Position numbers and translations under genes: made by a program. The notes under the pieces were generated by a model that worked only from the letters and a program-made list of their open reading frames with translations, had not been told where the DNA came from and made no database searches. 64,000 bases of DNA from an uncultured Methanosarcinales archaeon (GTDB taxonomy: Archaea; Nanobdellota; Nanobdellia; Woesearchaeales; UBA583): contig CAYGPK010000003.1 in NCBI GenBank assembly GCA_964351975.1, positions 91,617 to 155,616 on the forward strand. The letters are read 5' to 3'. Every line of letters begins with the position of its first letter. Positions within the stretch are counted from its first letter, which is position 1. This document shows positions 37,471-64,000 of this stretch, one piece after another.

Positions 37471-37550
37471 GCACGAAAAGTCTCAAAAATGAGTGACTTC
37501 TCGTACAGATGACTTACTTTTCGTACAAACCTCTTACTTTTCGTACAAGT
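37471..37550. repeat. iteron-like repeat cluster (3 direct + 1 inverted copy of CTTACTTTTCGTACAA-like motif)
   Basis: 37495-37510 GACTTCTCGTACAGAT, 37511-37530 GACTTACTTTTCGTACAAAC, 37531-37550 CTCTTACTTTTCGTACAAGT. An inverted copy GCACGAAAAGTC lies at 37471-37482. Confidence 0.8.
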
Positions 37551-37688
37551 CAAAATAAATAAAAAACTTTAAAGAAGTAATATCTGTACATAAATCATCC
37601 TTTTCAGATGGTATTGTGTTTAGAATAACAATAGAAAAAATAATGTGTAAGAATAAGTATAATTGAAAAATTAAGAATAATATAACAG

Positions 37689-38198
37689 TTAATCTTTACC
37701 TGAGATTAACTTTTTCAGAAAATTGCCACTCCACAAACTAACATTTGTCACTCTAGCAAGTTCTTCTGCACTTTTGGTAAATTTATTATTTGTAACAACT
37801 AAAGCTTTATCACAGCCATAATATTCTCTAGCAGAAATAACTTCTTGAACTGCTTTATTTCCAACTGGTTTAGAATACCTTTTTGCTTGAACTGCTGTTT
37901 TAACTCCTCCCATAGTTAAAATTAAATCTGCACCTTGATCGTTAACCTTTGGAGTTAGTTTTACATAATAACCAATATTTCTGAAAACCTTTTCTAAATA
38001 GTTTTCAAATTCTAATCCAGACATTGAATCAATATCAATAGTGCTATCTTTTTTGAATTTAAAATATCTAATGAAAAGTACTAAAAATATTATTGTAAAT
38101 ACCACAAATAATACTTTACTTAATTGATATATAATCCCTAAAAAAACAAGTAAAAAACTTATTATGTAATATATGACTAAAAACTTCCAAATTTTCAT
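37689..38198 (-). CDS. membrane-anchored Mrr-like restriction endonuclease domain protein
   Basis: Two N-terminal TM helices followed by the Mrr_cat pattern GLEFENYLEKVF...VNDQGADLIL...AVQAKRY...ALVVTNNKFTKSA. Confidence 0.7.
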   Translation of the reverse strand: MKIWKFLVIYYIISFLLVFLGIIYQLSKVLFVVFTIIFLVLFIRYFKFKKDSTIDIDSMSGLEFENYLEKVFRNIGYYVKLTPKVNDQGADLILTMGGVKTAVQAKRYSKPVGNKAVQEVISAREYYGCDKALVVTNNKFTKSAEELARVTNVSLWSGNFLKKLISGKD

Positions 38199-38201
38199 TG
38201 T

Positions 38202-39437
38202 CTATACCTCTTGAGGTATTGGTGCATTAAAGAAGTTTAAATCGAATGTTTCCATCTCTTGTATTAATACACAAATATTATGACAAATAACTTTACATAA
38301 TAATTCATTAATTTGAGCAGTCCAATTCTTTGATTTTAAAGTTTCTCCAAATTTCTTTTTAATCATACTAAAAGTAGTTTCTACATTAGATCTTTTATGA
38401 TAATGTTCCAAAAACTCTTCTTGATTATATATGAAATATCTTAAAGCTTTTTTCCAAAACATTCCATGCATATTAGTTTTCTTTAAAGTAACATTTTTCT
38501 TGAAAGGAATAAATGGTGTCGCTCCAACTTGATTGATTAATTTAAGGTTATCTCTACTTGAATATGCTTTATCTGCTGAAAATTCCCTTATATTAAATAT
38601 CTTATTTGTTTTCTCTAATAATTCTTTTAATTGAGGTGAATCATGCTCAAACTCAGATGTAATGTTAACTGCTGAAATAACATTCGTTTTAACTCCACAA
38701 ACTATATGACATTTTAACCATTTCCTATATCTCTCTTGCGTTGAGTGTTTATACTTACTCCAATTTTGAATACTTGATGTTCCAAATCCTGATGAATCTA
38801 TTGCAAAATCACATTCCACTTCATTTAATGGTTGAGCTGTTGCCATAACTAATTCTTGTAAAATTTCAGTAACATTATCTTTATTAAAATAATCTTTTAA
38901 GGTTGTAAAAGGGATATCCTTCTCAATATAACCAAAATCCTTACTAATTCTCATGTCAGATGTAAATCTCCTTCCTGAGAGTCCTGAATACACTTTAAAT
39001 ATCATTGAATACAAAACATCATTAAGAAAAGCTTTAGGTCTTCCCATAATTGCTTGGTCTGTTTCAAAATTTCTAACAGCATCTGAGAGAATTTTAAGAA
39101 ATTGTTCTTTTTCCTCCTTTTGAGCTTTGTTATAATTACTCCAATCTTGAGTATATGTTTTCTTTTTTACAACCTCTTCCTCTTTAGGTTCTATATTATT
39201 ATTTACTTTATATTCAACTGCATAGATATGTTTACAGTTACCATTATGTTTTTGATGGTCTTTGCATGAGCATGATGTATTGAATCCATTTGTTTTAACT
39301 GTGTAAAATAAAGTTTTATTAGTTTGTGAAGTAACTCTCCAAGTCCTATCATTTATCTTTATTATTTCTAATTCTTTTGCAAGAAGAAGCCCTCTCTCTT
39401 TTCTTTTGTTAGTTGTTTGTAGTTGTGTGGTTTCCAT
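38202..39437 (-). CDS. DDE transposase (IS4/IS5-like) with N-terminal SWIM zinc finger
   Basis: SWIM motif CSCKDHQKHNGNCKHIYAV. DDE candidates are AIDSSGFG, SADKAYSS and RSNVETTFSMIKKKFGETL. Confidence 0.75.
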   Translation of the reverse strand: METTQLQTTNKRKERGLLLAKELEIIKINDRTWRVTSQTNKTLFYTVKTNGFNTSCSCKDHQKHNGNCKHIYAVEYKVNNNIEPKEEEVVKKKTYTQDWSNYNKAQKEEKEQFLKILSDAVRNFETDQAIMGRPKAFLNDVLYSMIFKVYSGLSGRRFTSDMRISKDFGYIEKDIPFTTLKDYFNKDNVTEILQELVMATAQPLNEVECDFAIDSSGFGTSSIQNWSKYKHSTQERYRKWLKCHIVCGVKTNVISAVNITSEFEHDSPQLKELLEKTNKIFNIREFSADKAYSSRDNLKLINQVGATPFIPFKKNVTLKKTNMHGMFWKKALRYFIYNQEEFLEHYHKRSNVETTFSMIKKKFGETLKSKNWTAQINELLCKVICHNICVLIQEMETFDLNFFNAPIPQEV

Positions 39438-39564: not shown

Positions 39565-39768
39565 ATGAGTGAGAGAAAGCAGGATTCAGGTGCATTTATT
39601 GAAATAATAGGTCACAAGTGTTATAGATGTGGGCATGAATGGAAGCCAACTTCAATGGATAAAGCACCTAAAGCTTGTCCTAAATGTAAAAGTCCCTATT
39701 GGGATGAACCTTTGAAGAGAAAAGAAGTTAGCGATAAAATAAAGAAAACTCTTAGTGAGAAAAATTAA
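39565..39768 (+). CDS. small zinc-ribbon protein
   Basis: CYRCGHEW...CPKCKSPYW. A TATA box at 39536-39543 lies 22 nt upstream. Confidence 0.6.
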   Translation: MSERKQDSGAFIEIIGHKCYRCGHEWKPTSMDKAPKACPKCKSPYWDEPLKRKEVSDKIKKTLSEKN

Positions 39769-39962: not shown

Positions 39963-40841
39963 TTATTCAAACATATTTAAAAAAACATTAGTTACTTTAT
40001 TATATTCTTGTAAAGAAATATGATTTTTATATAAATAATGATTAATTCCTACATTTCGTGAATTTCTTCCTTGCATAAAGTTAGCAATATCAAATGGAAT
40101 ATTATTCTCTATAAGCTTGGTGAAATTGTATTTTCTAATATACTTTAAAGGTATTAATTTATTTCTTTTAATGTATGTAACATAACCTGAAGAATCATAA
40201 TTTTTCATTAATTCTTTATTTTCTTTTAATAATAGATAAGTTTTCCTTGAGATATAAATATAATATGAATACTTATACCCTCTAAGATAAAAGTTAGGAT
40301 ATGAACAAACATCTTCTTTGATTTCAAAATCTTTAATATTGAAATTTGAAAAGAAATGTTCTAAATCTTTTATTCTCTGGCCTGATTCAAGTAATACTCT
40401 TAAAAAGATTATTTCTTTAAGATATCTTTTCTTAGTATGTTCAATTAATATACTAATATCTTCATCTTTTGCAAACCTTTTGTCTATATTACTAAGGAGT
40501 TTAATATAGAATCTTGCTTTATATTCTTCAAGTTGAGTATAACTAATAAATCCTTTTAAGAATAAGTAATTAAAAAATACTCTATATGAAACTGAAATTG
40601 CTTTAATGGTTCTTTCATTTGTTCCTATAACTTCATTGGCTGTTTTGAATTTCTTCTTTAAACAAAAGTCTAAAGTTGAAATAATGTTTTGCCTATAATC
40701 CTTTGAATACATTTCAAGCCATTTTAAAAAATCTTCTCTATTTTTAGAGTAAAGTCTCATGATGCGAGTAAAATTTTTATCTAGGTCTTTGTTTTTTTGA
40801 ATTAAGACTAATTTCTTAATTGATTTACTTTCTATTCTCAT
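39963..40841 (-). CDS. divergent tyrosine recombinase/integrase (tentative)
   Basis: SAM-like N-domain (YRVFFNYLFLKGFI), LLESGQRIKDL (Arg I), LKYIRKYNFTKL (K/HxxR-like), FMQGRNSRNVGINHYLY (candidate catalytic Tyr). Confidence 0.55.
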   Translation of the reverse strand: MRIESKSIKKLVLIQKNKDLDKNFTRIMRLYSKNREDFLKWLEMYSKDYRQNIISTLDFCLKKKFKTANEVIGTNERTIKAISVSYRVFFNYLFLKGFISYTQLEEYKARFYIKLLSNIDKRFAKDEDISILIEHTKKRYLKEIIFLRVLLESGQRIKDLEHFFSNFNIKDFEIKEDVCSYPNFYLRGYKYSYYIYISRKTYLLLKENKELMKNYDSSGYVTYIKRNKLIPLKYIRKYNFTKLIENNIPFDIANFMQGRNSRNVGINHYLYKNHISLQEYNKVTNVFLNMFE

Positions 40842-40877: not shown

Positions 40878-41195
40878 TTAAAATAAACTTCTATAGATTA
40901 ATTCTATAATAAAACCTAAAAATCCTAGAATTATTATTCCTAAGATTGCATATAAAATTACTTTGTCTATTGAGGTTACATTTTTTTCTTTCTTTTTTGT
41001 TTTACCTTTATTAATAAAGTAATCAATAATCCACAATATACAAGCAATAGTTAACCCATTACCAAAAATTCTCCCTTTAATTGAGGGTGTAGCTCCAAAA
41101 ATAAGGCCTGAAATACCATATGCTAACGCAATCCATGCTAAAAGATTAAAAAACCTCTTTGTGGAGTTATGGAATTTTTCTATTAATTTCTTCAT
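40878..41195 (-). CDS. small 3-TM membrane protein
   Basis: 105 aa with three hydrophobic helices. It is the last small gene after the helicase-nuclease. Confidence 0.5.
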   Translation of the reverse strand: MKKLIEKFHNSTKRFFNLLAWIALAYGISGLIFGATPSIKGRIFGNGLTIACILWIIDYFINKGKTKKKEKNVTSIDKVILYAILGIIILGFLGFIIELIYRSLF

Positions 41196-44446: not shown

Positions 44447-45715
44447 TTATATTAATATTGAATGTAATTCCTCTTTCAATTTTTTTCTTTCTTCATATTT
44501 AAGTAAATTTCTATGAAGGTTTATAGTTTTAATTTTAATGTGAATATTTTCTTCATCATCTGATTTAAGATTTATGTTCTCAAAATTAACATTAAATTCA
44601 TATTCAGGATAAAGTAAGATTATATTTTTTATTTCTTGCTTATCAAAATATCGCATTCCATACATAAACATTTGATAAATATCTCCTTGTGAAACTCCGT
44701 AATTCAATTTATCTTTAATTAAACGTTTATATTTAGTATCAATAATCAAAATTTCATTAGAGTTATTCTCTAAATAAATGTCAGGTTTTAATTGAAATTT
44801 AGAAAAATTAGGACTTATTTTATTATTAAAAACATATTTGTCAGCTTTTTGGGTTTTAATTCTTGAAAACTCTATTTTAAATTCTTTTTTTATAAATTCA
44901 CCTATAAATTCTTCAAATAAATTATTCATATTAAACATTATAGAAAAACTATCAAAATTTTTAGAATTTAAAGAAACTGAGTTTCCAAATAATAATAGAA
45001 TTGCAAGATTAAAACTATTCATATAAATTTTATTTAATCTATTAAATGTAATTTTTAAAGTTTCATGTTTTGAAATGTTTCTTAGCTTAACATCTTGAAG
45101 TATAAAATCACATTCAGTTAATAATTTGAAATTTGAATTAGATTTTGTGATTTTAATTAATTTTTGAACAGTTGCTTTAAATACTTGATTTAATAAATTA
45201 TTTTCTGTAAATTCATCAAACTTAGAATAAAATTTTACTTTATTAAATAAATTAAATTTGAAATGCTTTGACATCAATAGCTTACCTTTAAGATAATTTG
45301 TATTTTCTTCTTTATCTTCATAGTTTCTTATTAAGTCCTTCTTTAACAATTCCAATAAATTTTTAGAGAATAAATAGATTATCGCTTCAAAAATATTTTC
45401 ACTTTTACTTAAAGATGAAATTTCAGTTTCATTAAGGTTCAATTTCTTTGTATAAGATAACATGAATAATAAATTATTTACAATAAATGAGTTATCTTCA
45501 ATATTATTTGAAAATATTTTAGGTAAGACTTGAATTGTTTTATTATTAATCTGAACAACTCCAACATATTTTCTTGCTTTTATACCTTTAGAAGTAAATT
45601 CAAATAAATTATCTTTATTTAATTTATTTAATTTTTCTATTAATACCTTTTCTTTTAAAGATAAATCATTATAAGATTCATATTCTAAAAGAGATATAAC
45701 CTTTTTATTCCTCAT
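44447..45715 (-). CDS. mcrC: McrC-like nuclease subunit
   Basis: GVVQINNKTIQVLPKI (McrC N-domain signature) and LKPDIYL...LIIDTKYKRL (PD-D/ExK core). It overlaps the McrB gene by 11 nt. Confidence 0.8.
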   Translation of the reverse strand: MRNKKVISLLEYESYNDLSLKEKVLIEKLNKLNKDNLFEFTSKGIKARKYVGVVQINNKTIQVLPKIFSNNIEDNSFIVNNLLFMLSYTKKLNLNETEISSLSKSENIFEAIIYLFSKNLLELLKKDLIRNYEDKEENTNYLKGKLLMSKHFKFNLFNKVKFYSKFDEFTENNLLNQVFKATVQKLIKITKSNSNFKLLTECDFILQDVKLRNISKHETLKITFNRLNKIYMNSFNLAILLLFGNSVSLNSKNFDSFSIMFNMNNLFEEFIGEFIKKEFKIEFSRIKTQKADKYVFNNKISPNFSKFQLKPDIYLENNSNEILIIDTKYKRLIKDKLNYGVSQGDIYQMFMYGMRYFDKQEIKNIILLYPEYEFNVNFENINLKSDDEENIHIKIKTINLHRNLLKYEERKKLKEELHSILI

Positions 45716-48137
45716 CTTTATTTTCTTGTTTTTCTAAATTAATAATCTTTTCAAGGTATGGCATAATATCTTCATTAGTTGTTTTAAAATCTTTTAATTT
45801 GAATAAATCTTCATCTATGTCTAAATTTGAATTATTTCCAAATATTTTTCTAATTTCTTCTGTTCTTTTCTTCTCAAAAAAATCATTTCCCAAAACTAAC
45901 TTTAATCTTTCTACATCTCCATAAAAGTATTCTTCCAATAATGGGATTATTTCTGTGATGAAAATTTCTTTTATATCCTCTTTATTTTTAACTAGCTCTT
46001 CATTACAAAAAAAAGAATGTCCTATTAAATGATCTTTATCTAATAAGAATTCTATTCTATTATTTAAATTCTCAAATAGGGATCTAAGATTAAAACCCTC
46101 TATATCATTACTAATCAATTCAGAATTTGGGAGCATTTCAATAAATCCAAATCTTCTCCTAAGTGCAATATCTAATGTTGCAATACTTTTATCACTTGTA
46201 TTCATAGTTCCAATTATATAAAGATTAGGAGGTATTGTAAATGGTTCATTTGAATAAGGAAGGTTTAATATTAATTCCTCTTTTTCACCTAATCTTTTAT
46301 TTGATTCTAATAATGTAATTAATTCCCCAAATATCTTTGAGATATTTCCTCTATTTATTTCATCTATAATTAAAAAGAAAGGTTTTTCTGTTTCTTTTTC
46401 AATCAAGAAACTTTCTTTTCTTATATTCTCTAAATTTTTATTAAGAAAATTCAAAACTGATTTATAATATGGTTCTAATCCACCTTTGATATATTTAGAG
46501 ACTTCTTGATTAGAATCAAAGAATATTTTTCTTAATGTTTTTATAGATAAACTATGACTTCTATCCTTATTTTTTTTCTCAAAAAAAATAGTTTTATCAT
46601 TGTATTCATAAATTGAAATTTGAGTTCTTTTAGTTGGAATCATAATTACTTCTTCATCTTCTAATTTTTCAAAACATTTTTCTATTAGTTTATTAAAATC
46701 AACTTCTTCTCCTGAAATTCTTGATCTCAAATAATTTTCCTCTGCTAATCTAGAAAATTGTTTAAATATCCCGTCTTCAATTTTATAAGAAATTTCTTTA
46801 TTTCCGTCAATATTGGGTTTAATACCTTCAATAAATTCTTCATACGAATATGATTGATGGAAAGTTATGAACTTAATTCTGTTTTCTTTCTGTAAAGTTT
46901 CAAATATTTCACTTGGAAAGTACTCAATAATTTTATTTTTTATAGAGTAAGTCTTTCCAGTACCAGGAGGACCATATAATATTATTTGTTTTTTGATTTT
47001 TAATAAATTTTTAGGTGAGACATTATTGTCTACAATAGGTAAATTTTCACCTTTATCTATCTCAGTTTTAAAATATGAATGTTTTAAAGTAAATTCATAA
47101 ATCAATCTATCAGCAATTAAATTCTCTTTCATATTATCTTCTTCAGTTGAATTTAATTTTAAATCTGATAAATCTAAATATTTTTTTAATTCATTTATTT
47201 CTTTATTAAAATAATTTTTGTAAGTTTTATAATCAGAAATATTTGCAAATTTTAAAAAATTGTCAACTCTACTATTTTGTATGTAATTTGTTTTTGAACT
47301 TAAATTATATAATCCAAAAATTTCATTTGCTTTACTTGCTAAACCTGGAACTTTTCCCCAGTTAGTTTTATTCTCATATACTGATTCAACAAAATTAAAA
47401 TATGTGGAAATTAGACTTGTACAAAACCCTTTTATAAAATTTCCAATTGATTGTTTATTTTGAGCATTTATATTCTCAGTTAATTCTACAAATAACTTTA
47501 TTATTTCTTCACCATCAAAAAGATTTTTAGTTAAATTATTTAATATGATAAAAAAATTATCTTTAGTTAATCTCTCATTGTTAGAGATTGAATCATTATA
47601 GGAATATCTATTTGAAATGTTATTATTATGAATTATTTCTTTATATTTTTTGTCTATCTCTTTTTTCTCAAGGTCTGATTTTGAATTCCAAAAATTATAT
47701 ATTTGTTCTATATTTCTTTTAATAATCTTAAAATAATTGATGTTGTGTTCATATTCTTTTTGATTTTTAAGGTTATCATTATTAATAAATTCATTCCTGA
47801 TAAGTTCAAGGTTTGAGTCTGTTTCTGATATTTGGTTATTATTTTTAGTTAAAAAATCAATATAAGCTTGAACTACCGCACTAGGCCCTCCATTATGATA
47901 TTTAAGATTAAAATCATTCAAGTCTCCATTAGATAATAATCTTTTTTTAAGTTTAACATAAAAATTTATATCTAATATATGGTAAAAAGATTGAGAAATT
48001 TCATTTTTTTCCATTAACTTATCATTCAATTTATTAAAGTCTTGTAAGTAATAACTAGGTGTTTTAGGTCTAGTTTTTAGAAAATTCTCAAATCTTTCTT
48101 TCAAATTTTCAGTTTTTATTTCATTATTTTTTACCAT
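45705..48137 (-). CDS. mcrB: McrB-like GTPase (AAA+) with ~380-aa uncharacterised N-terminal domain
   Basis: LYGPPGTGKTY, FITFHQSYSYEEFIEGIKP, FLIIDEINRGNISKIFGELITLLE and IIGTMNTSDKSIATLDIALRRRF (McrB signature). The N-terminal 380 aa are helical with no motif recognised. Confidence 0.85.
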   Translation of the reverse strand: MVKNNEIKTENLKERFENFLKTRPKTPSYYLQDFNKLNDKLMEKNEISQSFYHILDINFYVKLKKRLLSNGDLNDFNLKYHNGGPSAVVQAYIDFLTKNNNQISETDSNLELIRNEFINNDNLKNQKEYEHNINYFKIIKRNIEQIYNFWNSKSDLEKKEIDKKYKEIIHNNNISNRYSYNDSISNNERLTKDNFFIILNNLTKNLFDGEEIIKLFVELTENINAQNKQSIGNFIKGFCTSLISTYFNFVESVYENKTNWGKVPGLASKANEIFGLYNLSSKTNYIQNSRVDNFLKFANISDYKTYKNYFNKEINELKKYLDLSDLKLNSTEEDNMKENLIADRLIYEFTLKHSYFKTEIDKGENLPIVDNNVSPKNLLKIKKQIILYGPPGTGKTYSIKNKIIEYFPSEIFETLQKENRIKFITFHQSYSYEEFIEGIKPNIDGNKEISYKIEDGIFKQFSRLAEENYLRSRISGEEVDFNKLIEKCFEKLEDEEVIMIPTKRTQISIYEYNDKTIFFEKKNKDRSHSLSIKTLRKIFFDSNQEVSKYIKGGLEPYYKSVLNFLNKNLENIRKESFLIEKETEKPFFLIIDEINRGNISKIFGELITLLESNKRLGEKEELILNLPYSNEPFTIPPNLYIIGTMNTSDKSIATLDIALRRRFGFIEMLPNSELISNDIEGFNLRSLFENLNNRIEFLLDKDHLIGHSFFCNEELVKNKEDIKEIFITEIIPLLEEYFYGDVERLKLVLGNDFFEKKRTEEIRKIFGNNSNLDIDEDLFKLKDFKTTNEDIMPYLEKIINLEKQENKDEE

Positions 48138-49213: not shown

Positions 49214-49532
49214 TTTTTAGTAATTTGAACTTCATTTTTAAAATATTAATTAACTTGGGATCATCTTTTTTATAGATATCTTCAATTTCTAATATTTTAA
49301 TTTTTGACATAACTGAGACTTTGTTGTGGAGTTCTAATATCTTGTCATATTGTGCTTCTTCCATAACAAATATACTTTCAGACCAACTTAATTTAGTTTT
49401 TAAATCATCATTAGTATATATTCCAATAAAATCTGTTTTGTCTTGAGGAAACATTTCCTTCCAAAGTTTAGAAGCTGAAGGACTTCTATACTTACCTTGA
49501 TTACAAACAAATAAAATATTCATTCTAAGCAA
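49203..49532 (-). CDS. low-molecular-weight phosphatase-like protein (CX5R)
   Basis: NILFVCNQGKYRSPSA matches the LMW-PTP/ArsC P-loop V-C-X5-R-S. It is only 109 aa. Confidence 0.5.
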   Translation of the reverse strand: MLRMNILFVCNQGKYRSPSASKLWKEMFPQDKTDFIGIYTNDDLKTKLSWSESIFVMEEAQYDKILELHNKVSVMSKIKILEIEDIYKKDDPKLINILKMKFKLLKNER

Positions 49533-53121: not shown

Positions 53122-55588
53122 TTTTTATACCCCAAAAATATATTGAATTTTTATCAATATTTAGTGATCTTGTTCCAAAATTTCTAGCTATCCTATAATA
53201 ATCATAAAATTCTTCTGATTTAAAATAATTCAAATTACTAATTTTAATATCTTCTTCAGTATTAATTAATGCTAGTGAGCCATCACAAATACTATTTTTT
53301 GGAAGAAAACTAGCTCTAGGATAATAACTTAAGTTTGGAATGATTATAGAATTACTGTTTAAAAATTTTTTAACAACAAAAGAATCAATATTATCAACAA
53401 AAGTATCATAACCTTTAATATTAATAATTTCTCCGTCACGAGACAAATTTCTTGATTTTAAAACTCTAAACTTACCTGAACTTAATTTAGTATCTTTTTT
53501 TGTTATCTGTCTATCTCTAAACGAAGTAAAAACTCCAAGTCTTAATGTTAATGTTACCTCGTCAAAGAAAGAATTTCTGTATATTAACCAATAAGGAAAC
53601 CTTTTATCAATAATATAAGATTTATTTAAATAATTTATTTCTTTAGTTATTAAAGACTCTATTTTTATACTTGAGTCTGATACTTCTAAATTCTCAACCA
53701 ATATAGAAATCGTCTCAATTTTAACTCCCTCAAATCCTGTTTCTCCAAAATCAGAGATTTTATAAATATTTAACTTCTCTAGATCATCTCTTAAATTTTT
53801 ATACTCGGGACTACTTAAAACATTCTTAGGAATAATTAAACCTACATTTTTAGAAATTTCTAAAGATTTTTTAAAAAATAGTATAAATAAATTTTTAGAA
53901 TAACTAAAATCATAATTCAAACTTAATTGTTCTTTTGAACATTTTCCAAAAGGAGGATTGCCAACTACTAAATCAAATTTTTTTTTAATTTCTTTTAATA
54001 AAAAATCAGTATTTTCAAAATAAACATTAAAATTCTTTGGTATTTTCTTTAATAAAAATAATAATTTTAAAGTTTCAATAATTTTCAAATCTAAATCAAA
54101 TAAATATAAATTAACTTTTTTAATTTTAGAATATTTTTCAATAAGTAAAGTTATTATGTTACCACAACCAACTGATGGTTCAAGAATAGAAATTTCTTTT
54201 TTAGTTGAAAAATCAGGTAAATCTTTAACTAAATTATATCCTATCTCCATAGGTGTATAATATCCTTTAAATTGATCTCTCATCAAATTTGAGAATTCAC
54301 AAATTTTTAATAATTCAGAGAATGAATAATTATTAAAATTTTTTTTTAAAAAATTATTTAAGTTTTTAGTATTAGTTAATTTTTTTTCAGAAATAATTTT
54401 TAAAACCTCTTTCTTAGTTAAGGATTCTGTTAAATATTTAGAAATATTTTTTGAAATCTTATCAAAAACTAAAGTTGGGACTGCTTCACCTAAAACTTGT
54501 CTAATATTAATTTCATGCTTTTTTAAATATTTTTTTTTATCAGGGATGCTTAGTTCATTTAATTTATCTATATTATCATTACTCCATTTAAAATTATCTG
54601 GAACTGACATAATTCTCATTAATTCTCTAATACTAAAAACTCTATCATCCCTCGGATGTATTGTCGATTGACTAGATAAGATATCATTTCTAGTATGAAT
54701 ACAAGGAGAAACTTTATTCCAATAACATCTTGAATATTTATCTCCATTTTTATTTTTATTGAAAACTATTTCACCATTAATTATTTTATGTGGTCTTTTT
54801 AATTCATCTTTATTGTCAAATGCACTTTCACCCTCTTTAATATCTGAAATCCAACTTCTCATATGCTCTGAATACTCTTTAAAATTATGATATATATCTT
54901 TGGAGTCAATTTCTCCCATAACTTTTAAAGGCTTTAAATCTCCAATTGTTTCTTTTAAAGATTTAACTTTCTCCATACTAGGAAGTAACTGAAAAGGAGA
55001 AATATCTTTTAAATTTTTTCTAACTCCTATAACTAATGTTCTAGTCCTACTACTTGGAACTCCAAAATCTTTAAAGTTATATGTGTCATAAGAAATATTA
55101 TATAAACCCCCTAAATTTTTTTCAATTGCATCTTTAATAGGTTTATTTACACCATCTAAATCAGTACATTCAGTCTTCAAAAATGCTCTAACATTTTCAA
55201 AAATGAAAAATTTTGGAGAATACTTATTTATAATATTAATGGATTCAATAACTAAAGAGTTTCTTTTTAATTCATTGTTTTTTTTATGATTTGCAACCGA
55301 CATCCCTTGACAAGGTGGTGTTGCTATAATTACATCTAATTCTGAAAGTAAACCTTTAGACTTCCATAAATTAATTTCTTTATCTAATTCTCTTTTTGTT
55401 GAATCTAATCTTATGTCTTCAGAAATATATCCTGAATTAAATTTGCAAATATTATTTGCTTTTTGAATTTCAATTCTTTTTTTTAAAATTTCAATAGAAC
55501 TAATACAATTAAAATTATTTTTATGAAACCCATAACATCCTACACCTCCACTACTAAAAAGAGTAACATAATTTAATTTTTTAGACAT
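53111..55588 (-). CDS. bifunctional DNA methyltransferase: N-terminal C5-cytosine MTase fused to C-terminal N6-adenine (gamma-class) MTase
   Basis: m5C motifs LFSSGGVGCYGF (I), ATPPCQGMS (IV), FIFENVRAF (VI), LGEAVPTLV (X). m6A motifs ILEPSVGCGN (I), VVGNPPFGK (IV). Confidence 0.85.
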   Translation of the reverse strand: MSKKLNYVTLFSSGGVGCYGFHKNNFNCISSIEILKKRIEIQKANNICKFNSGYISEDIRLDSTKRELDKEINLWKSKGLLSELDVIIATPPCQGMSVANHKKNNELKRNSLVIESINIINKYSPKFFIFENVRAFLKTECTDLDGVNKPIKDAIEKNLGGLYNISYDTYNFKDFGVPSSRTRTLVIGVRKNLKDISPFQLLPSMEKVKSLKETIGDLKPLKVMGEIDSKDIYHNFKEYSEHMRSWISDIKEGESAFDNKDELKRPHKIINGEIVFNKNKNGDKYSRCYWNKVSPCIHTRNDILSSQSTIHPRDDRVFSIRELMRIMSVPDNFKWSNDNIDKLNELSIPDKKKYLKKHEINIRQVLGEAVPTLVFDKISKNISKYLTESLTKKEVLKIISEKKLTNTKNLNNFLKKNFNNYSFSELLKICEFSNLMRDQFKGYYTPMEIGYNLVKDLPDFSTKKEISILEPSVGCGNIITLLIEKYSKIKKVNLYLFDLDLKIIETLKLLFLLKKIPKNFNVYFENTDFLLKEIKKKFDLVVGNPPFGKCSKEQLSLNYDFSYSKNLFILFFKKSLEISKNVGLIIPKNVLSSPEYKNLRDDLEKLNIYKISDFGETGFEGVKIETISILVENLEVSDSSIKIESLITKEINYLNKSYIIDKRFPYWLIYRNSFFDEVTLTLRLGVFTSFRDRQITKKDTKLSSGKFRVLKSRNLSRDGEIINIKGYDTFVDNIDSFVVKKFLNSNSIIIPNLSYYPRASFLPKNSICDGSLALINTEEDIKISNLNYFKSEEFYDYYRIARNFGTRSLNIDKNSIYFWGIKNGN

Positions 55589-55753: not shown

Positions 55754-56713
55754 ATGTTAGTAGATAAATGGGATAAGAAGATTCTTTATGAATTAGATAA
55801 GAATGCTAGAGCTTCACTCTCAGAGATTGGAAATTCCATTAATAAATCTAAATCCTTTGTCAAATACAGACTTGACAATTTAACTAAAAATGGAGTTTTA
55901 AGAGGATTCTTCGTCATTTCTGATTATTCAAAAAGAGGAATCGAAGCTAGAAGTTTATATCTACAGATTTATGATAATGAAGCAAAACATAAAATCATCA
56001 AATATTTACAGAAAAAACCTATTATATCAGCTATTTTTGAAACTACAGGGATTTATAAACTTGTAATTAACCTTAAAACTACATCTAAGATTGAACTTAC
56101 TCAATTTATTGAAAAATTATTAGTTGATTTCAATGATGATATTGAAAGTTATAAAATTTTACTTTCATACAGATCTTTTTCACCTGCATACAACTTTTTC
56201 CATGATAAAGATATGAAAAGAATAGTTAAGGTAAAAGAATATAACAATTCAAAACAAATACCATTATCAAAGAAGGAATTAAATTTATTTGATATAATTG
56301 CTAAAAACCCTACTATTTCTAAGACTGAAATGGCAATTAAAATGAAATCAACTAGAGAAACAGTAACTAAATTGTTTAATGAACTCTTTGAAAAAGGAGT
56401 TTTAATAGATATAAAACCATTCTTAAATTCTGATTTATTAGGTGAAGGTTATGTTAGAAAAATTTTCATAATTGAACTGAAAATGAAGGGATTTTTACAA
56501 TTAGAAGAATTTAAAAAATATTTATTAGAAAAAAATGAAGTAATTCACTTATCATTTACTATGGGTTCAGGAGACTTATTCTTTACAGGTATTTTCAAAG
56601 ATAATGCCTGTTTTAAAGCATTTGAAGATGATTTTGTAAATAAATTTAGTTCAATAATTAAAGCTGAAACTTTACTTGATTACCATGACAATTATATTAA
56701 TCCGTCAAAATAA
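55754..56713 (+). CDS. tandem-duplicated Lrp/AsnC-type HTH regulator
   Basis: Two HTH units: DKKILYELDKNARASLSEIGNSINKSKSFVKYRLDNL and LNLFDIIAKNPTISKTEMAIKMKSTRETVTKLFNEL. Confidence 0.6.
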   Translation: MLVDKWDKKILYELDKNARASLSEIGNSINKSKSFVKYRLDNLTKNGVLRGFFVISDYSKRGIEARSLYLQIYDNEAKHKIIKYLQKKPIISAIFETTGIYKLVINLKTTSKIELTQFIEKLLVDFNDDIESYKILLSYRSFSPAYNFFHDKDMKRIVKVKEYNNSKQIPLSKKELNLFDIIAKNPTISKTEMAIKMKSTRETVTKLFNELFEKGVLIDIKPFLNSDLLGEGYVRKIFIIELKMKGFLQLEEFKKYLLEKNEVIHLSFTMGSGDLFFTGIFKDNACFKAFEDDFVNKFSSIIKAETLLDYHDNYINPSK

Positions 56714-56808
56714 TAGTTCAAATATTGAATAATTTGTCTTTTTTATATCTAATTTTCTTCTTATCGTTCAAGATTTAGAAAAATACCTTTATATAGTTTG
56801 AACACTTA

Positions 56809-57930
56809 TTGTTACTATATAAAGTGACAACACAAAGCATACCTAGAATTGAAGAGAATAGTTTTGCATTAAAAGAGAGAATACTATTTTTCATATCAGG
56901 TAACCCTTTGAGTACTTGTAGAGAAATTTCAAAGAATCTTAATTTATCTTATAATAATGTTAATAGGAAAATTTTAGAAATGAAAGAACAAGGTATTGTT
57001 GAAAGAAGAAGTTTAAAGTATAAGATTTCAGATTCGTATGTGAATTATTATCAGGATTTATACAAAAACCTTATTATCACAAATAATGAGAAGGTAATGC
57101 ATTATAGTGAAAAAGAGTCTCAATTTGGAGAGATATTTAATCATTTAGCTGATAAGACCATATTAGAAGAAATTAATACTAAGATTGATTTGTATGTTGC
57201 TGAGAAATTAGATATGTGGAATAAGAAAGTTAATCAAAATACTAAAAAAGAAATAAGTAAGATAGTTAGCACAATTCAAGAAACTTTTGGAAATAGAAAA
57301 AATCTAAGAGTTTTAGATATCGGATGTGGAACTGGAAGATTAACATTCTCATTATCTAAATTTTATGATGAAGTAGTTGGTATTGACCATAATAGAAAAT
57401 ACATTAAATATTGTAGAGTAAAAAGAGATCAATTAAAATTAAATAATTTGAAATTTAGACCTGCTAAAGTTACCTCATCAATTAATGAGTTTAAGTATGA
57501 TGTAATTATTATAGGTAAAATTAATTTACATAGTATGAAAAATAAATCTGAAATTATCTCTAACCTAAAGAAGAAATTAAATAATAATGGAATTATAATT
57601 TCAATTGAACTAATTGAAAAAGCTGAATTGTTTAAATTTTTAAATGAATTTAGAGATTTTAATTTGGAGAAATATAAATTAAATAGATTAAGTTTAATTG
57701 AAGATTTCACAAAAGGAGGATTTAAAGTTACATCAGAGATTGTTGAAGATGAGAACACTTTTGAGACAAAACAAGAGATTTTAGATATCTACAAAGTATC
57801 AGCTCTTTTCTTTCAACCTTATCTTCAATGGTCTCTAGAAGATATAGATAAATTAAAAGAACATTTGATTAAAATGGTTAAACCTTTAGTTCATAATAAT
57901 GATTATTGTTTTATAGTTTGTAAAAAATAA
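56809..57930 (+). CDS. winged-HTH domain fused to a class I SAM-dependent methyltransferase
   Basis: N-terminal ILFFISGNPLSTCREISKNLNLSYNNVNRKILEMKEQGIV (wHTH) and VLDIGCGTGRL (SAM motif I). The start is uncertain: TTG 56809 or in-frame GTG 56824. Confidence 0.65.
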   Translation: MLLYKVTTQSIPRIEENSFALKERILFFISGNPLSTCREISKNLNLSYNNVNRKILEMKEQGIVERRSLKYKISDSYVNYYQDLYKNLIITNNEKVMHYSEKESQFGEIFNHLADKTILEEINTKIDLYVAEKLDMWNKKVNQNTKKEISKIVSTIQETFGNRKNLRVLDIGCGTGRLTFSLSKFYDEVVGIDHNRKYIKYCRVKRDQLKLNNLKFRPAKVTSSINEFKYDVIIIGKINLHSMKNKSEIISNLKKKLNNNGIIISIELIEKAELFKFLNEFRDFNLEKYKLNRLSLIEDFTKGGFKVTSEIVEDENTFETKQEILDIYKVSALFFQPYLQWSLEDIDKLKEHLIKMVKPLVHNNDYCFIVCKK

Positions 57931-59332: not shown

Positions 59333-61459
59333 ATGAAAAAATTGTTAATAATTTTTCTATTCTTGTTTTCAATTAATTTAGTATATAGTTTTGATTGTAA
59401 TTATTTTGCAGATCAAAAACTAAAAGATAATTGTTTACAAAGTATAGAAATAGATAAGGACTTAGTAGCTAATTTGATATACAAAGATTCATTATATCCA
59501 AACCATGAATTTGTATCAAGTTATAATAATAATCTTACTAGAGAGAATTATATCTCAATTATTAACAAAACAGATTCAACACTTCTAAAAAATGTATTTA
59601 CAAAAATATTAGATGTTAGTCCATCTATTGAATATAAAGGAGAGTTATTAGTCCCTAACCAAACAAATCTAAGAATAGATAATTATTATGAATATTTAAT
59701 TCCTCAAAGTTATTTTTTAAGTTCTAATGATTTATCTGACAATGGGAAAGTTTGTGGAAATCAATATAGCTTAAATAATATTTATGATGAATCTAAACTT
59801 TTCAAGAATGGAATACAAATCCCAATCTCTGAGCAATTACCAATAAGTAAAGATACAGAATTAACTCTAAATTATAATGTTGAATTATCAATGAAAATTG
59901 ATGAGTATAGATTTGATAAGTTATGTAAACACTACAAAAATAATAAATGTCAAGAGTATAAATTAATTTGTGAATATTCTAAAACAACATATCAGGTAGA
60001 TAGTATAAATGTGAATGATAGCATTACTTTAAGTTTATACAATGAATCAAGTTTACCTAATTTCATTATTGAAGATCAGTATGAAAAAACATTAAATGGT
60101 AGAATATACAACTCATCATATTCAAATTTGTTGATATACAATAATGATTCATACTATAGAGAATATAACTATAAATTTAGTGCATACTTTACAGATTTAG
60201 AATTTTTAAAAATCAAAGCTGTAGATTCAACTCACTCTAGTTTTAGAAATTTAATCAAGACAGGAACTATAGTTTACTTATCAAATTTAAGTGATTGTAA
60301 TATATTTTCAACTAACTTTTTCAAAACTAAAGAGGGTGATTGTGAATACCAGTTAATCAATAAGACAATTTCTGATTTTAAAGAAGAACCATTTAAGAAG
60401 ATACTAAGAATTTTACTAAACTTATTATTATTTGGAACTGGATTATACTTGACATATATTATAGGTAAAAAAATCCTAAAGAAAATGTTTCCATTTTTGT
60501 TTCTAGTATTATTACTAGTTACACCAGGAGTATTTGCTCAAACTCCAAACGAAGATGTAAGGGAATGTGGAATATTTGATATTGAAGCATGTTTTGATTT
60601 ATTCTTTGATAAATTGTATGGATTAATTAATGCACCAATACAAGGATTACTTGATTATGTTAAAATCTTAATGATTGAATTTCCAGATTTAGAAATAGCT
60701 AAAGGTAAATGGATGATGATGTTATATTTAGTTAATTCATTAATTGCTATTCACATGACACTTTCAGGAATTATGATGATTGTTCATTCATATGACCCTG
60801 TTAAAAAAAGTATTGCAAAAGAGAACATTTTCAATTCATTAGTAATTTTAATTTTAGCTTCAGCATCATATTATTTATATGGACTTGCAATGGAAGTTTC
60901 AGGAGCATTAACTTCAACGATATTTAATTTTGTATCTGACGACTTTCTTTTGATTCAACATTCAAGTAGTGCCATTTTGAATATGGGTAGTATAGGTGTA
61001 GATTTCGCTTTAGCATTAATATTCTTTCTTGAACTAATAATACTTTTTTTATTATTTTCAATTAGATATCTTGTATTAGGTATTGGATTAATTCTAATTC
61101 CTATTGCTATTTTTTCATATTACATTCCTAAACTAAGAGGAATTGGAGCTATCATGTTTAAGATAATTAGTTTTTACATGTTCTTTCCAGTAATTGCATC
61201 AATAATCATTTTAGGGTGTGATACAATGTCATATGCAGATGATTTGTTAGCATTGAACACAATCATACTAATTATTTGTTTTTTCATTATAGGGTATGTG
61301 TTCTATAAATTCTCAGAAGGTATAATTAAAGGAACAATAAATTTCTCAGAAATAAATAATATTGTTAGCTCACAACATAATCATCAGCACTATTACCAAA
61401 CAAAAACTGAGAAAATTGAACAACCAAAAAATAACGAGGATTTAACTAAATATATTTAA
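59333..61459 (+). CDS. large membrane protein: secreted Cys-containing N-domain + VirB6/TrbL-like polytopic C-domain
   Basis: N-terminal signal peptide, ~340-aa soluble region, one TM helix, then a second signal-like segment (LFLVLLLVTPGVFAQT) followed by ~6 TM helices. Confidence 0.5.
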   Translation: MKKLLIIFLFLFSINLVYSFDCNYFADQKLKDNCLQSIEIDKDLVANLIYKDSLYPNHEFVSSYNNNLTRENYISIINKTDSTLLKNVFTKILDVSPSIEYKGELLVPNQTNLRIDNYYEYLIPQSYFLSSNDLSDNGKVCGNQYSLNNIYDESKLFKNGIQIPISEQLPISKDTELTLNYNVELSMKIDEYRFDKLCKHYKNNKCQEYKLICEYSKTTYQVDSINVNDSITLSLYNESSLPNFIIEDQYEKTLNGRIYNSSYSNLLIYNNDSYYREYNYKFSAYFTDLEFLKIKAVDSTHSSFRNLIKTGTIVYLSNLSDCNIFSTNFFKTKEGDCEYQLINKTISDFKEEPFKKILRILLNLLLFGTGLYLTYIIGKKILKKMFPFLFLVLLLVTPGVFAQTPNEDVRECGIFDIEACFDLFFDKLYGLINAPIQGLLDYVKILMIEFPDLEIAKGKWMMMLYLVNSLIAIHMTLSGIMMIVHSYDPVKKSIAKENIFNSLVILILASASYYLYGLAMEVSGALTSTIFNFVSDDFLLIQHSSSAILNMGSIGVDFALALIFFLELIILFLLFSIRYLVLGIGLILIPIAIFSYYIPKLRGIGAIMFKIISFYMFFPVIASIIILGCDTMSYADDLLALNTIILIICFFIIGYVFYKFSEGIIKGTINFSEINNIVSSQHNHQHYYQTKTEKIEQPKNNEDLTKYI

Positions 61460-61460
61460 A

Positions 61461-64000
61461 ATGGCATATGAAATTCCAAAACAATTAAAGTATAAAGAAA
61501 AATTTTTCCTAAACCTAACTTTTCATCAAGTAGGATGGTTAATGATATTTTCAACTATTGTTGTTTTTATTATGAGACTTGATTCAATTAATTTTTATTT
61601 AAGATTAATTATTTCAATTCCAATAACCTTACTAGGAATAGGATTTATCTACCTAAACTTTAAAGACTGGATTTATAGAATTATAATTTTCTTTAAATTC
61701 AAGTTAATTTCAATTAACTCATTATTAATGGGGAAGTATTTAGGAGTTCAAAAGATTGAAAATAATTCAGTTTATTTGAAATCAAAAAGACTTGCTATAA
61801 TTGAAACAACTCCAATTAACTTTAGTATAAAAAACGATGAAGATAAAGAAGCAATAGTATTTGGATTTAGAAAATTTCTAAACTCACTAGATTTTCCTAT
61901 CCAATTTGTAATCACAACTAATAACCTTTCAATTACTGAATATTTAGATGAGTTGAAATCAAGAAACTCTAACACTAGATTATTTAATGACTTTTTCAAG
62001 TTCATGCAGAGTCTAATCAAGAAAAATAAACTTAGAAATAGAAGATTCTTTTTAGTTATAACTGAGCAAACAAATTTAGATAATCAAACTCAAATCTGTA
62101 TAGATAAGCTAAGACAAATTGGAATTTTATCTAATAGGTTAAATGATAAAGCAATAATTAAAGATCTTCATTTATTTTTTAATGATATAACTGATAAGAA
62201 TGAATATAATAATAACTTTAAAAATAACTCAATTAATTATTTGATTGCTCCAAATAAAATTGAAAACTTCCCAGACTATTTCAAAATTAATGAAAAGTTT
62301 TGTAGAATTATTGCTGTTAAAGATTACCCTAATGTTGTTGAGTCAGGATTCTTAGATAAGATTATTTCTACAAATGAAGATTTTGATATTTCCATACACA
62401 TCATGCCTTACAATAATGAGTCTTCAACTTTAATGCTTAACAATCAATTAAATAAACAAAAAGCAGATTTGTTTGCATTAAATAAAAAACAATTACAAAA
62501 TAGATCACTTGATAATCAATATGGAGATACTCAAAAGATATTAGATAGGATTCAAAGAGGTCAGCAAAGATTATTTGAGGTTTCATTATATATTAATTGT
62601 AAGAGTGAATCAAAAAAAGAATTAGACCTTTTAACGGCTAAAGTTAAAGCTGAATTAAATTCAGTTATGATGGTTCCTCATATTCCTTACTTTAGACAAC
62701 TTCAAGGATATAAATCTATCATGCCAGTTGCAAACGATCAATTAAAGATTGAAAAGAATATTACAACAAAAGCACTTGGAACATTTATTCCATATACTAG
62801 TACATTCTTAGATGTTCAAAATAGTGGAGTTATGCTTGGCCTTAACAGGAATAAAGTTCCAGTAATCAAAGATATATTCAAACTATCAAATGCAAATGGT
62901 GTAGTTTTGGCAACTTCAGGAAGTGGAAAATCTTATTTTACTAAATTACTTATCTTAAGACAATTATTATCTGGAACTAAAGTTATGGTAATTGACCCTC
63001 AAAGTGAATACCATGAACTATGTAACCATGTAGATGGAACTTTAATTACAATCTCAAGATATTCTGAATCTATAATTAATCCTCTTGATTTAATGGGTCA
63101 AGATTTAATTAATAAAAGGTTAATGTTAATGGACTTGTTTAAAGTTATGTTTGGAGAATTATCTGAAGCCCAAAAAACAATCTTAGATAGAGCTATTGTA
63201 AAAACATACAAGAAATACAATATAACTGATACATCTTATAAAAATGTTGATAAGATGCCAATTCTAAAAGATTTGTATCAAATTTTAGAAAAGGATTCTA
63301 AAAAATCTAACTCTTTAGATAAAATTTCATATCAAGTATTACTAAATAGATTATACATGTATACTGATGGAGTTTTCAAATTTTTTAACAGACAAACTAA
63401 TTTAGATTTTGATAATGATTTTGTTTGTTTTGATATTGGTGATATGCCTGAACAAGTTGAACCTGTTGCAATGTTTCTTGTTTTAGATTATGTATACAAG
63501 AAAATGAAACAAACAAAAGAAAGAAAACTTCTTATTGTTGATGAAGCATGGAGTTTGTTAAGTAAAACTAAAGGTTCAAATTATATTTTTGTAATAGTTA
63601 AAACATGTAGGAAATCAAATTTAGGTCTTCTACTAATTACTCAAGATGTACTTGATTTACTATCCTCAAAAGCAGGTAAAGCTGTACTTAACAATTCATC
63701 ATATACATTTTTACTAAGACAAAAAACATCTGTAATTCCTGAGGTTATGAAAACTTTTCATTTATCTTCAATGGAAAAAGAATATCTTCTTACAGCAAAT
63801 AAAGGTAAAGGAATTTTAATCATGGATAATGATCATCAAGAATTAGAAGTTATAGCATCTCCAATTGAACATGACATTGTGACAACTAATGCTGATGAGA
63901 TTATCAGTAAAACAATCATTACAAAAACTATTGTTAATGAAAATGAATTTGATAAGCTTAATTTAGAGAAAGGTTTATTCAAAGATGAGAATTTAACTGG
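61461..64000 (+). CDS. VirB4/TrbE-family transfer ATPase with fused N-terminal 2-TM (VirB3/PrgI-like) segment; partial, runs off the window
   Basis: Hand-translated and open from ATG 61461 to the window end. MAYEIPKQLKYKEKFFLNLTFHQVGWLMIF (2 TM), VVLATSGSGKSYF (Walker A), RKLLIVDEAWSLL (Walker B), LGLLLITQDV. Absent from the ORF track because it has no stop in the window. Confidence 0.8.
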   Translation, partial: MAYEIPKQLKYKEKFFLNLTFHQVGWLMIFSTIVVFIMRLDSINFYLRLIISIPITLLGIGFIYLNFKDWIYRIIIFFKFKLISINSLLMGKYLGVQKIENNSVYLKSKRLAIIETTPINFSIKNDEDKEAIVFGFRKFLNSLDFPIQFVITTNNLSITEYLDELKSRNSNTRLFNDFFKFMQSLIKKNKLRNRRFFLVITEQTNLDNQTQICIDKLRQIGILSNRLNDKAIIKDLHLFFNDITDKNEYNNNFKNNSINYLIAPNKIENFPDYFKINEKFCRIIAVKDYPNVVESGFLDKIISTNEDFDISIHIMPYNNESSTLMLNNQLNKQKADLFALNKKQLQNRSLDNQYGDTQKILDRIQRGQQRLFEVSLYINCKSESKKELDLLTAKVKAELNSVMMVPHIPYFRQLQGYKSIMPVANDQLKIEKNITTKALGTFIPYTSTFLDVQNSGVMLGLNRNKVPVIKDIFKLSNANGVVLATSGSGKSYFTKLLILRQLLSGTKVMVIDPQSEYHELCNHVDGTLITISRYSESIINPLDLMGQDLINKRLMLMDLFKVMFGELSEAQKTILDRAIVKTYKKYNITDTSYKNVDKMPILKDLYQILEKDSKKSNSLDKISYQVLLNRLYMYTDGVFKFFNRQTNLDFDNDFVCFDIGDMPEQVEPVAMFLVLDYVYKKMKQTKERKLLIVDEAWSLLSKTKGSNYIFVIVKTCRKSNLGLLLITQDVLDLLSSKAGKAVLNNSSYTFLLRQKTSVIPEVMKTFHLSSMEKEYLLTANKGKGILIMDNDHQELEVIASPIEHDIVTTNADEIISKTIITKTIVNENEFDKLNLEKGLFKDENLT

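Follow-up and report, generated by a model that had tools for sequence, protein, structure and literature searches.

The DNA analyzed here, called the window throughout, is a stretch of 64,000 nucleotides (nt) from contig C3 (positions 91617 to 155616) of a Candidatus Woesearchaeota (DPANN) genome (G000; 1.137 Mb in 13 contigs, with a G+C content of about 27%), and the subject of this report is a large mobile element that fills its right part. Genes for eRF1, RtcB, an enzyme of wyosine synthesis, and a pilin of the archaellin type mark the DNA as archaeal. From position 37465 onward the window holds the left 26.5 kb of the element; a further 17 kb lie beyond the window, and the whole comes to 43,884 bp, or about 4% of the genome, with some 40 passenger genes. 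Genes were called with Pfam, PADLOC, and NCBIfam profile searches. An original prediction, made from the window alone, had listed nuclease, transposase, recombinase, restriction, regulator, and VirB-like genes after 37.45 kb. All of the listed classes were recovered where it had placed them, the matches to small Zn-ribbon proteins being weak and below cutoff. It had also described a sharp change at this point. The change is one of gene content and not of base composition, because the G+C content is only slightly lower inside the element (25.4%) than outside (27.0%), and the true left end lies 6 nt before the predicted position 37471. Below, w denotes a coordinate of the window or of the joined path that extends it, and G, L, and P numbers denote genomes, DNA loci or contigs, and transposase relatives, respectively.

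The two ends of the element carry the same 18-nt terminal inverted repeat (TIR), GGCTTTGCACGAAAAGTC on the left and its exact reverse complement, GACTTTTCGTGCAAAGCC, on the right. Thirteen nucleotides separate the left terminus from a cluster of three subterminal repeats, and at the right end (L002:6087-6167, minus strand) three subterminal repeats are again followed by the terminus. A search of this genome for the 13-nt repeat motif, allowing up to one mismatch, hit nothing outside the two end clusters. Directly outside the termini lies ATTAAAAAC, a 9-nt target-site duplication (TSD) that is identical at 9 of 9 positions on both flanks, a match with a chance probability of about 2e-5 at this base composition. 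The transposase is intact and scores 144.3 bits against the NCBIfam model NF033579 (transpos_IS5_2; cutoff, 140); its DDE domain spans positions 4 to 200 of the 200-position PF01609 profile, with the SWIM finger lying N-terminal to it. The first 8 nt of the TIR read GGCTTTG(C/T), as in both inverted repeats (IRL and IRR) of the insertion sequence (IS) IS903B, whose repeats start with GGCTTTGT and which has a 9-bp direct repeat (PMC10569121). Judged by these features, the ends and the enzyme are IS5/IS903-like. Perfect TIRs, subterminal repeats, a 9-nt TSD, and a transposase gene near the left end together establish, at the level of sequence, that the element between the pilin-like and PRC-barrel genes arrived by DDE transposition. 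The finding is real and its extent known, and the mode of insertion, as read from the ends, is DDE transposition rather than att recombination. A right boundary with a matching att repeat had been anticipated; the second boundary was indeed found, on another contig, and it is marked by the TIR and the TSD instead of att direct repeats. A 34-nt direct repeat between the two end clusters was considered as an att core and rejected, because related loci (L202, L203, L206, and the IS of G011, all described below) keep the arrangement of the repeats while the repeat sequence changes along with the transposase; the repeats are transposase-type subterminal sites. Two other repeats were noted inside the element. 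The 13-nt direct repeat TTAAGAATAATAT, at window positions 37671-37683 and 39554-39566 and with only two copies in the genome, brackets the Mrr and transposase gene pair. In addition, TTGGTCTGCA has six copies in the genome, five of which cluster in 125 nt on the inner side of the right end (L002:6280-6404, minus strand; path w81031-81155); these five look like iterons, which might be origin or regulator sites.

The path of the element beyond the window was traced through three contigs. Contig C3 ends 769 nt past the window, its last 55 nt are exactly the first 55 nt of contig C13 (3085 nt), and the last 55 nt of C13 are in turn the exact reverse complement of the end of contig C2. On this joined path the VirB4 open reading frame (ORF) stops at w64448, and an ORF for a DsbA-like protein of 274 amino acids (aa) runs unbroken over the join between C13 and C2. 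An independent Logan contig, ERR3534981_26184 (L201; 7083 nt), is 100% identical over w63336-70418 and bridges both joins, and the left and right host junctions are represented by L159 and L161, each 100% identical. The left end is set in the intergenic region of two converging genes, and excising the element in silico together with one copy of the 9-mer leaves a spacer of about 65 nt from the pilin-like gene to the promoter of the PRC-barrel gene. The features within the window are collected in Table 1.

Table 1. Features of the element inside the window, followed by related features elsewhere (window coordinates unless a contig is named)
Feature	Position	Strand	Evidence or remark
Left TSD copy, ATTAAAAAC, 9 nt	37456..37464	.	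Right copy directly outside right end, L002:6078-6086, minus strand
Left TIR, GGCTTTGCACGAAAAGTC, 18 nt	37465..37482	+	Perfect 18/18 partner at L002:6087-6104 (C2:155086-155103)
Three subterminal repeats ACTT(C/T)TCGTACA, 20-nt spacing	37495..37554	+	Orientation opposite to TIR; presumed transposase-binding sites
Mrr-type PD-(D/E)XK nuclease, type IV restriction-like	37689..38198	-	Pfam Mrr_cat 1e-29, PADLOC; 3 nt downstream of transposase gene
SWIM zinc-finger and DDE transposase, IS5 family, 411 aa, intact	38202..39437	-	Pfam PF01609 4e-25 and PF04434
Left copy of exact 17-nt direct repeat TGTAGTTGTGTGGTTTC	39418..39434	.	Right copy L002:6194-6210, 31 nt inside right subterminal repeats; 17-mer absent from relatives
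Small protein, 67 aa, possible Zn-ribbon	39565..39768	+	Zn-ribbon matches weak, all under curated cutoffs
SSV-type tyrosine recombinase (integrase), 292 aa, intact	39963..40841	-	PF16795 4e-24, 85.8 bits (cutoff, 27)
105-aa protein, three predicted transmembrane (TM) segments	40878..41195	-	Within same 1.3-kb indel as integrase
UvrD-family helicase fused to PD-(D/E)XK nuclease, 1072 aa	41227..44445	-	Pfam
McrC	44447..45715	-	Pfam McrBC 1e-72
McrB-like AAA+ GTPase	45705..48137	-	Pfam AAA_5
MCM-like AAA+/lid/winged-helix protein, 345 aa, without MCM N-terminal domain	48176..49213	-	Pfam
109-aa ORF, YdjM-like membrane protein, SNase-like nuclease	49203..50200	-	Pfam
CARF (Csa3-like) and winged helix-turn-helix (wHTH) regulator	50317..50922	+	Pfam, PADLOC
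Type II restriction endonuclease	51922..53121	-	PADLOC REase_II 4e-116
Fused C5-cytosine/N6-adenine methyltransferase	53111..55588	-	PADLOC MTase_II 3e-214, Pfam
Two wHTH proteins: double-wHTH Lrp/AsnC-like regulator (55754), wHTH-SAM methyltransferase (56809)	55754..57930	+	Pfam
VirB2-like pilin of a type IV secretion system (T4SS), 107 aa, two hydrophobic helices	59007..59330	+	Pfam PF18895 26.5 bits, just under cutoff of 26.6; TM prediction
VirB6-like candidate, 708 aa, signal peptide, ectodomain of ~340 aa, 7-8 TM segments	59333..61459	+	TM prediction; no family match
VirB3-VirB4 fused conjugation-type ATPase, 995 aa	61461..64000 (ORF to w64448)	+	Pfam; NF045971 (CD1110-family VirB4) 348 bits (cutoff, 325)
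Partial pilin/archaellin-like paralogues	C3:33960-34421, 63743-63828, 64506-64598		
Miniature inverted-repeat transposable elements (MITEs) of G011, examples	L016-L024; C1:34049-34165, 160508-160624, 835431-835547, 837474-837590		

The same family of ends was found in one congener. G011, a complete genome (public record OZ242164.1), contains nine or more MITEs, about 100 or 130 nt long, that share the terminus GGCTTTGTACGAAAAGT, and the three copies whose TSD was read have 9-nt duplications (TAAGAAAGG, TCCACTTGG, and TTGAGACAG). It also contains one IS of 1.69 kb with the same terminus and the TSD ATTTCAACA; the transposase of this IS, the sole copy there, is 71% identical to that of the G000 element and is broken by stop codons. 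The left end of this IS consists of the terminal repeat, 27 nt, and an inverted subterminal repeat, and its right end of two repeats and the terminus. The MITEs of G011 are non-autonomous partners of the IS family that bounds the G000 element. Position 8 of the terminal repeat is C in both G000 ends and T in the G011 copies. A search for the terminus in 399 other genomes sampled across the phylum returned only G011, as did a looser TIR pattern within the genus. A scan of public genomes for a 17-nt TIR word gave mostly bacterial matches (Pseudomonas, Halomonas, and Pyrinomonadaceae; for example, L093 and L100), and a tblastn follow-up yielded one weak transposase relative. The word is present in many bacterial genomes, and in Pseudomonas fulva its copies form inverted pairs with a spacing of about 125 nt. 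This suggests that bacteria have MITEs or transposons that end in the same way, and a spread of the family across domains is possible.

The locus at which the element sits is variable within the genus. Of 19 congeners, 18 have a conserved 716-aa gene that in G000 lies on the left side of the element. Gene order in G011 matches that of G000 for a 784-aa gene and the 716-aa gene on one side and, on the other, for TIM, a 165-aa gene, rhomboid, and two more genes; the gap between these flanks measures 7.6 kb in G011 versus 47 kb in G000. In G013, the distance from the 716-aa gene to TIM is only 240 nt. Genes for PGI, eIF-1A, and an rve transposase, along with a degenerate MITE-like pair, occupy the 7.6-kb interval in G011. 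Relatives lack the element at this locus, and in G000 it is an insertion. An exact empty site was not found among the congeners compared, which are distant (about 45 to 66% protein identity).

Relatives of the transposase at other loci carry more information on how the element moves. The closest public transposases are P0002 (84% identical; locus L202) and P0003 (79% amino acid identity; locus L203). At both loci, Mrr directly follows the transposase gene, then come three subterminal repeats, and then a terminus ending in CAAAGCC; the subterminal repeats have co-varied and are of the TTGGGCGAAAAGT type. The host flanks of L202 and L203 match G000 genes on contigs C1, C2, C6, C7, or C8, that is, at other loci. 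Upstream of the transposase gene, L203 shares with G000 the segments w39435-39493, w39765-39938, the UvrD-nuclease gene (88% amino acid identity), and w49532-49721, at 70 to 83% nucleotide identity. It has GmrSD in place of the McrBC and MCM-like genes of G000, and it lacks the integrase and 105-aa genes, which amount to an indel of 1.28 kb. Locus L206 (transposase, 52%; UvrD, 77%) shows UvrD, a CoiA-like nuclease, the transposase gene, an end with three subterminal repeats, and then host housekeeping genes. No inner end motif or inverted repeat was found between cargo and transposase gene in either L203 or L206. The junction of transposase and cargo is therefore old and occurs at different chromosomal places, as a unit transposon predicts.

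Because this junction is kept at other chromosomal sites, no inner IS end is present, and both outer ends are intact, we infer that the region is the left part of a single 43,884-bp transposon moving as a unit, and we give this reading a probability of roughly 60%. IS-derived ends and a single transposase would then move the whole 43.9 kb, as a unit or "transporter" transposon. A simple IS measures about 1 to 1.5 kb and encodes a transposase only; at 43,884 bp and with about 40 passengers, the element is IS-derived but not itself an IS. Nor is it a compound transposon, since it has one transposase gene and no inner ends.

Several observations weigh against movement of the whole as one piece. 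The search for a second complete copy, one with both ends, was unsuccessful, and the contigs of L203, L206, and L207 stop before the far end; because the far end of no relative was recovered, transposition of the full 43.9 kb is deduced and not seen. An inverted-repeat search in L165 gave no usable ends. Junctions were looked up in assembled contigs, with the transposase, pilin, PRC-barrel, and Zn-ribbon proteins as queries, and among these contigs only occupied junctions, from the two samples in which this population is present (ERR3534981 and ERR3534985), were found, with no empty-site or circle contig. The first codons of the transposase gene contain one copy of the exact 17-nt direct repeat, whose other copy is found 31 nt inward of the right subterminal repeats; cargo inserted secondarily into a small IS could have left such a mark. 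In congener G006, which is complete, the same defense block forms a 22.6-kb island integrated at tRNA-Ser, with integrases and without a transposase, so that the cargo also has an integrase-based life. Finally, to our knowledge, a load of 44 kb far exceeds that of documented IS5-family elements.

The main rival account builds on the 17-nt repeat. It holds that an IS of about 2.1 kb (left end, Mrr, transposase gene, and right end) transposed first and made the 9-nt duplication, and that this IS was then invaded, at the 5' end of its transposase gene, by a 41.8-kb integrase-bearing element of plasmid-like or conjugative type, through site-specific recombination at a 17-nt TGTAGTTGTGTGGTTTC core. 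The outer ends would serve only as a frame, and the inner element would move by means of its own integrase. The repeat has exactly two copies in the genome, at these very positions, the left one at codons 2 to 6 of the transposase gene; the identity stops sharply on both sides, the integrase gene lies 530 nt from the left copy, and five of the six iteron-like TTGGTCTGCA copies are near the right one. The related defense block of G006, borne by an integrase and a tRNA gene, fits the same history. However, 1.6% of random segment pairs of the same size in this genome share a direct repeat of at least 17 nt. Such an integration would moreover place the ATG of the transposase gene on the arm beside the right end, whereas it lies at the left copy, a position common to the cargo-free IS of G011, L202, and L203. 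L203 has the junction of transposase gene and cargo but no integrase. Integrase homologues in relatives gave no comparable short att: no att repeats were found at the assumed position beside two G006 homologues, and a search on the other side of one of them, together with a tRNA scan, led to the one clear att, a fragment of tRNA-Ser. We regard the two-step history as possible but unlikely.

In a second alternative, the element would be an integrative and conjugative element (ICE) that is excised and integrated by the tyrosine recombinase and transferred by VirB2/VirB6/VirB4, with the transposase as an incidental passenger. The integrase is intact and aligns to the catalytic domain of the SSV1 integrase (PDB 3VCF; E value, 9e-12), with R, KYxRK, QGR, and HY identical in both; the VirB4 protein passes the CD1110 conjugative-ATPase model and has a patchy distribution. 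Against this, the insert is bounded by inverted repeats and a 9-nt duplication instead of direct att repeats, the integrase is missing from the related element L203, neither a VirD4/FtsK-type ATPase nor a relaxase was found, and the T4SS trio is all that the element shares with the T4SS loci of relatives. The element contains no tRNA fragment; a tRNA-type att was also rejected as a candidate in its own right on this ground, the single tRNA of the window lying 13.5 kb from the element. Integrase-driven movement is quite improbable in our view. A static defense and resistance island, built piecemeal at a hot spot and with terminal repeats and 9-mers left over from unrelated IS or MITE insertions, is hardly credible: the interval from the 716-aa gene to TIM is variable in the genus, and G011 has a degenerate MITE-like pair and an rve transposase there, but both 18-nt repeats are identical (including the C at position 8 that is T in G011 copies), correctly inverted, matched by subterminal sets, and flanked by the same 9-mer, and G000 has no other copy of the end.

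Returning to the element as a whole, its passenger DNA from the transposase gene to the right end amounts to about 41.8 kb. It consists of a defense block (SSV-type integrase, UvrD-nuclease with McrBC, MCM-like ATPase, CARF regulator, and type II restriction-modification system), the minimal T4SS trio, and the genes outside the window. Beyond the window, the joined path first encodes proteins of 84, 531, and 285 aa without a family. These are followed by a DsbA-like thioredoxin, rhodanese, DUF302, multicopper oxidase, DUF411, MerT-like, and ferric-reductase-like membrane proteins, and then by a methyltransferase, ArsR, a P-type heavy-metal ATPase, and a DedA/VTT protein; last, on the other strand, come Fic, RadC, and five small ORFs. 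Judged by its gene content, the off-window set contains a copper/metal-resistance operon ahead of Fic, RadC, and the small ORFs. The earlier view of a cargo almost entirely devoted to defense does not hold for these 17 kb, with their metal-related genes, DsbA-like protein, rhodanese, Fic, and RadC. The 531-aa protein downstream of VirB4 gave no Pfam, NCBIfam, or Atlas lead and is not conserved beside VirB4 in relatives, and a protein look-up found no record for a 72-aa ORF at the right end.

The right part of the window ends in the T4SS-like module. The gene for the VirB2-like pilin is syntenic in G013 and G021, and that for the VirB6-like protein is conserved beside VirB4 in G007, G021, and G025; the trio is all that the element shares with the VirB4 loci of G007, G013, G021, and G025. 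The YdjM and SNase genes are also present on the G021 contig that bears its T4SS trio. The VirB4 protein has two N-terminal TM helices and a PrgI/VirB3-like start, and its second-best NCBIfam match is the Mycoplasma ICE ATPase family, at a score under the cutoff of that model. It occurs in 8 of 41 genomes searched, counting G000, and in 3 of 19 congeners, and its best public relatives are 58 to 60% identical. The source names of transposase and VirB4 relatives are Woesearchaeota, Nanoarchaeota, or Aenigmarchaeota. The trio may give cell-to-cell transfer or DNA uptake.

The original prediction spoke of an integrative, possibly conjugative element. A single inserted mobile element with defense cargo and a VirB2/VirB6/VirB4 module is what we found, and features expected of an ICE are present, namely, a recombinase (DDE transposase and SSV-type integrase, both intact) and a VirB4-bearing T4SS with VirB2-like and VirB6-like neighbors. 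In size and load, too, the element is ICE-like. The proposed search for a relaxase or coupling protein on the extended element came back negative. A coupling ATPase (VirD4-, TraG-, or FtsK-like) was found in the element neither by a Walker-A survey nor by Pfam or NCBIfam, and Pfam and NCBIfam recognized no relaxase, proteins of 531 and 291 aa being without a family match. The term "conjugative" is unproven, because neither function was found and the element encodes only four Walker-A proteins (UvrD-like, McrB, MCM-like, and VirB4). Archaeal conjugative plasmids are likewise without recognizable relaxases (PMC9905601). We hypothesize that the element may be conjugative.

Two of the nucleases could be followed through relatives. 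A small restriction-fold nuclease directly follows the transposase gene in four elements, an Mrr in three of them, counting G000, and a NERD protein in one, the P0006 contig (JGI 3300045300), whose transposase is 65% identical; the stop and start of the two genes overlap or nearly touch. The nuclease in this slot may be a recurrent partner or a favored passenger. An obligatory TnsA-like role for Mrr is not supported, the nuclease being absent from the G011 IS, L165, L166, and L206. A Tn7-like heteromeric transposase combines TnsA with an rve-type TnsB and makes a 5-bp TSD, whereas here the transposase is of the IS5 type, the TSD is 9 bp, and the nuclease is not obligatory. It is a further possibility, by analogy with TnsA in Tn7, that the Mrr or NERD nuclease coupled to the transposase gene would act as a second-strand nuclease. 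The UvrD-nuclease adjoins McrBC or GmrSD in all four contexts with a visible neighbor (G000, G006, L203, and L207) and was found in only 3 of 20 genomes in the genus, G000 included, and for these reasons it looks like part of a type IV restriction-linked defense module rather than a transposition factor.

The promoters of the element follow those of the host. Among 981 host genes and 40 element genes alike, 18% have the motif TTATA[AT] starting at -28 from the ATG, with frequencies near zero at neighboring positions. TTTATA starts at -29 in 16% of the 981 host genes, again with values near zero at adjacent offsets, and in 10% of element genes. This sharp TATA-to-ATG geometry implies mostly leaderless transcripts. 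The predicted agreement with the host rule was thus borne out; long residence, which had been deduced from it, does not follow, the spacing being a general property of leaderless archaeal genes in the lineage. As to the host part of the window, genes for a bacterial-type RelA/SpoT protein (HD, synthetase, TGS, and ACT domains) and signal peptidase II (LspA) lie at window positions 28314-30239 and 31545-32015. The left-flank pilin/archaellin-like gene (window positions 36847-37437) has several partial paralogues, 80 to 90% identical, on the same contig (Table 1).

DPANN archaea, whose genomes are tiny, live on other cells, and little is known of how they gain and exchange genes. Here, a 44-kb element is precisely delimited, and restriction systems, metal resistance, and a conjugation-type apparatus lie between IS ends and not att sites. 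The exact ends, binding repeats, and reconstructed empty site are now available for mobility tests in read data or in vitro. It is rather unlikely, by our estimate, that we have before us the first archaeal counterpart of DDE-driven ICEs, a DPANN lineage of IS5/IS903-like SWIM-DDE transposases moving tens of kilobases, VirB2/B6/B4 included, as a unit; if true, transposition and not site-specific recombination would seat a transmissible element in the chromosome.

Among known systems, IS903 is the nearest for the ends. It is about 1 kb long, with a transposase of about 300 aa. The G000 element resembles IS903/IS903B in its DDE_Tnp_1 transposase, which passes the IS5 model, in its 18-nt TIR beginning GGCTTTG(T/C), and in its 9-bp target duplication. 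It differs in the N-terminal SWIM extension (411 aa in total), three subterminal repeats per end, a cargo of 41.8 kb where IS903 has no passengers, and a DPANN host. The nearest relative of the defense cargo is the island of G006 (C1:~751,000-773,671; L205 and L198), 22.6 kb long, with tRNA-Ser(GCT) at one boundary, a 26-nt duplicate of the 3' part of this tRNA at the other, and integrase genes at both ends. CARF-HTH, YdjM-like, McrB, McrC, and UvrD-nuclease genes stand there in the order of window positions 50922 to 41227, at 37 to 69% amino acid identity and adjoining an SSV-type integrase, but the island has no transposase, TIR, T4SS, or metal operon.

According to a 2019 survey of archaeal integrated elements, no DNA transposon with passengers had been detected in archaea (Krupovic et al. 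2019, PMC6563490). The G000 element, together with the related L203 and L206, suggests that archaea do have such transposons and that these may reach a very large size. The Sulfolobales pNOB8/pING plasmids and the ICEs of Nitrososphaeria share with it an SSV/pNOB8-type integrase, VirB4, VirB6-like and pilin-like proteins, the lack of a recognizable relaxase, and defense or metal cargo (PMC6563490); unlike it, these archaeal elements have a VirB4 and VirD4 pair and integrate at att sites, mostly in tRNA genes, whereas the G000 element has no VirD4 and is bounded by TIRs and a TSD. The Ced and Ted DNA importers of Crenarchaeota (Beltran et al. 2023, PMC9905601) are made of the same minimal parts, a VirB2-like pilin, a VirB6-like polytopic protein, and a VirB4-like ATPase, with neither coupling protein nor relaxase, a likeness at the level of the parts list; they are chromosomal host systems, whereas the trio of G000 is carried by a mobile element and was found in only 3 of 19 congeners. 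TnGBS of Streptococcus and the Mycoplasma ICEs are DDE-transposase ICEs with sizes of up to 52 kb (Guerillot et al. 2014, PMC3942029). They, too, are large and bounded by inverted repeats, with a DDE transposase in place of an integrase and a VirB4-type module. Their transposases are Mutator-like (p-MULT), they have relaxase or coupling functions, and their transfer has been demonstrated, whereas the G000 element has an IS5-family transposase and an archaeal host, and neither a coupling ATPase nor a relaxase was found in it. The bacterial DDE-driven ICE is the closest concept to the G000 element.

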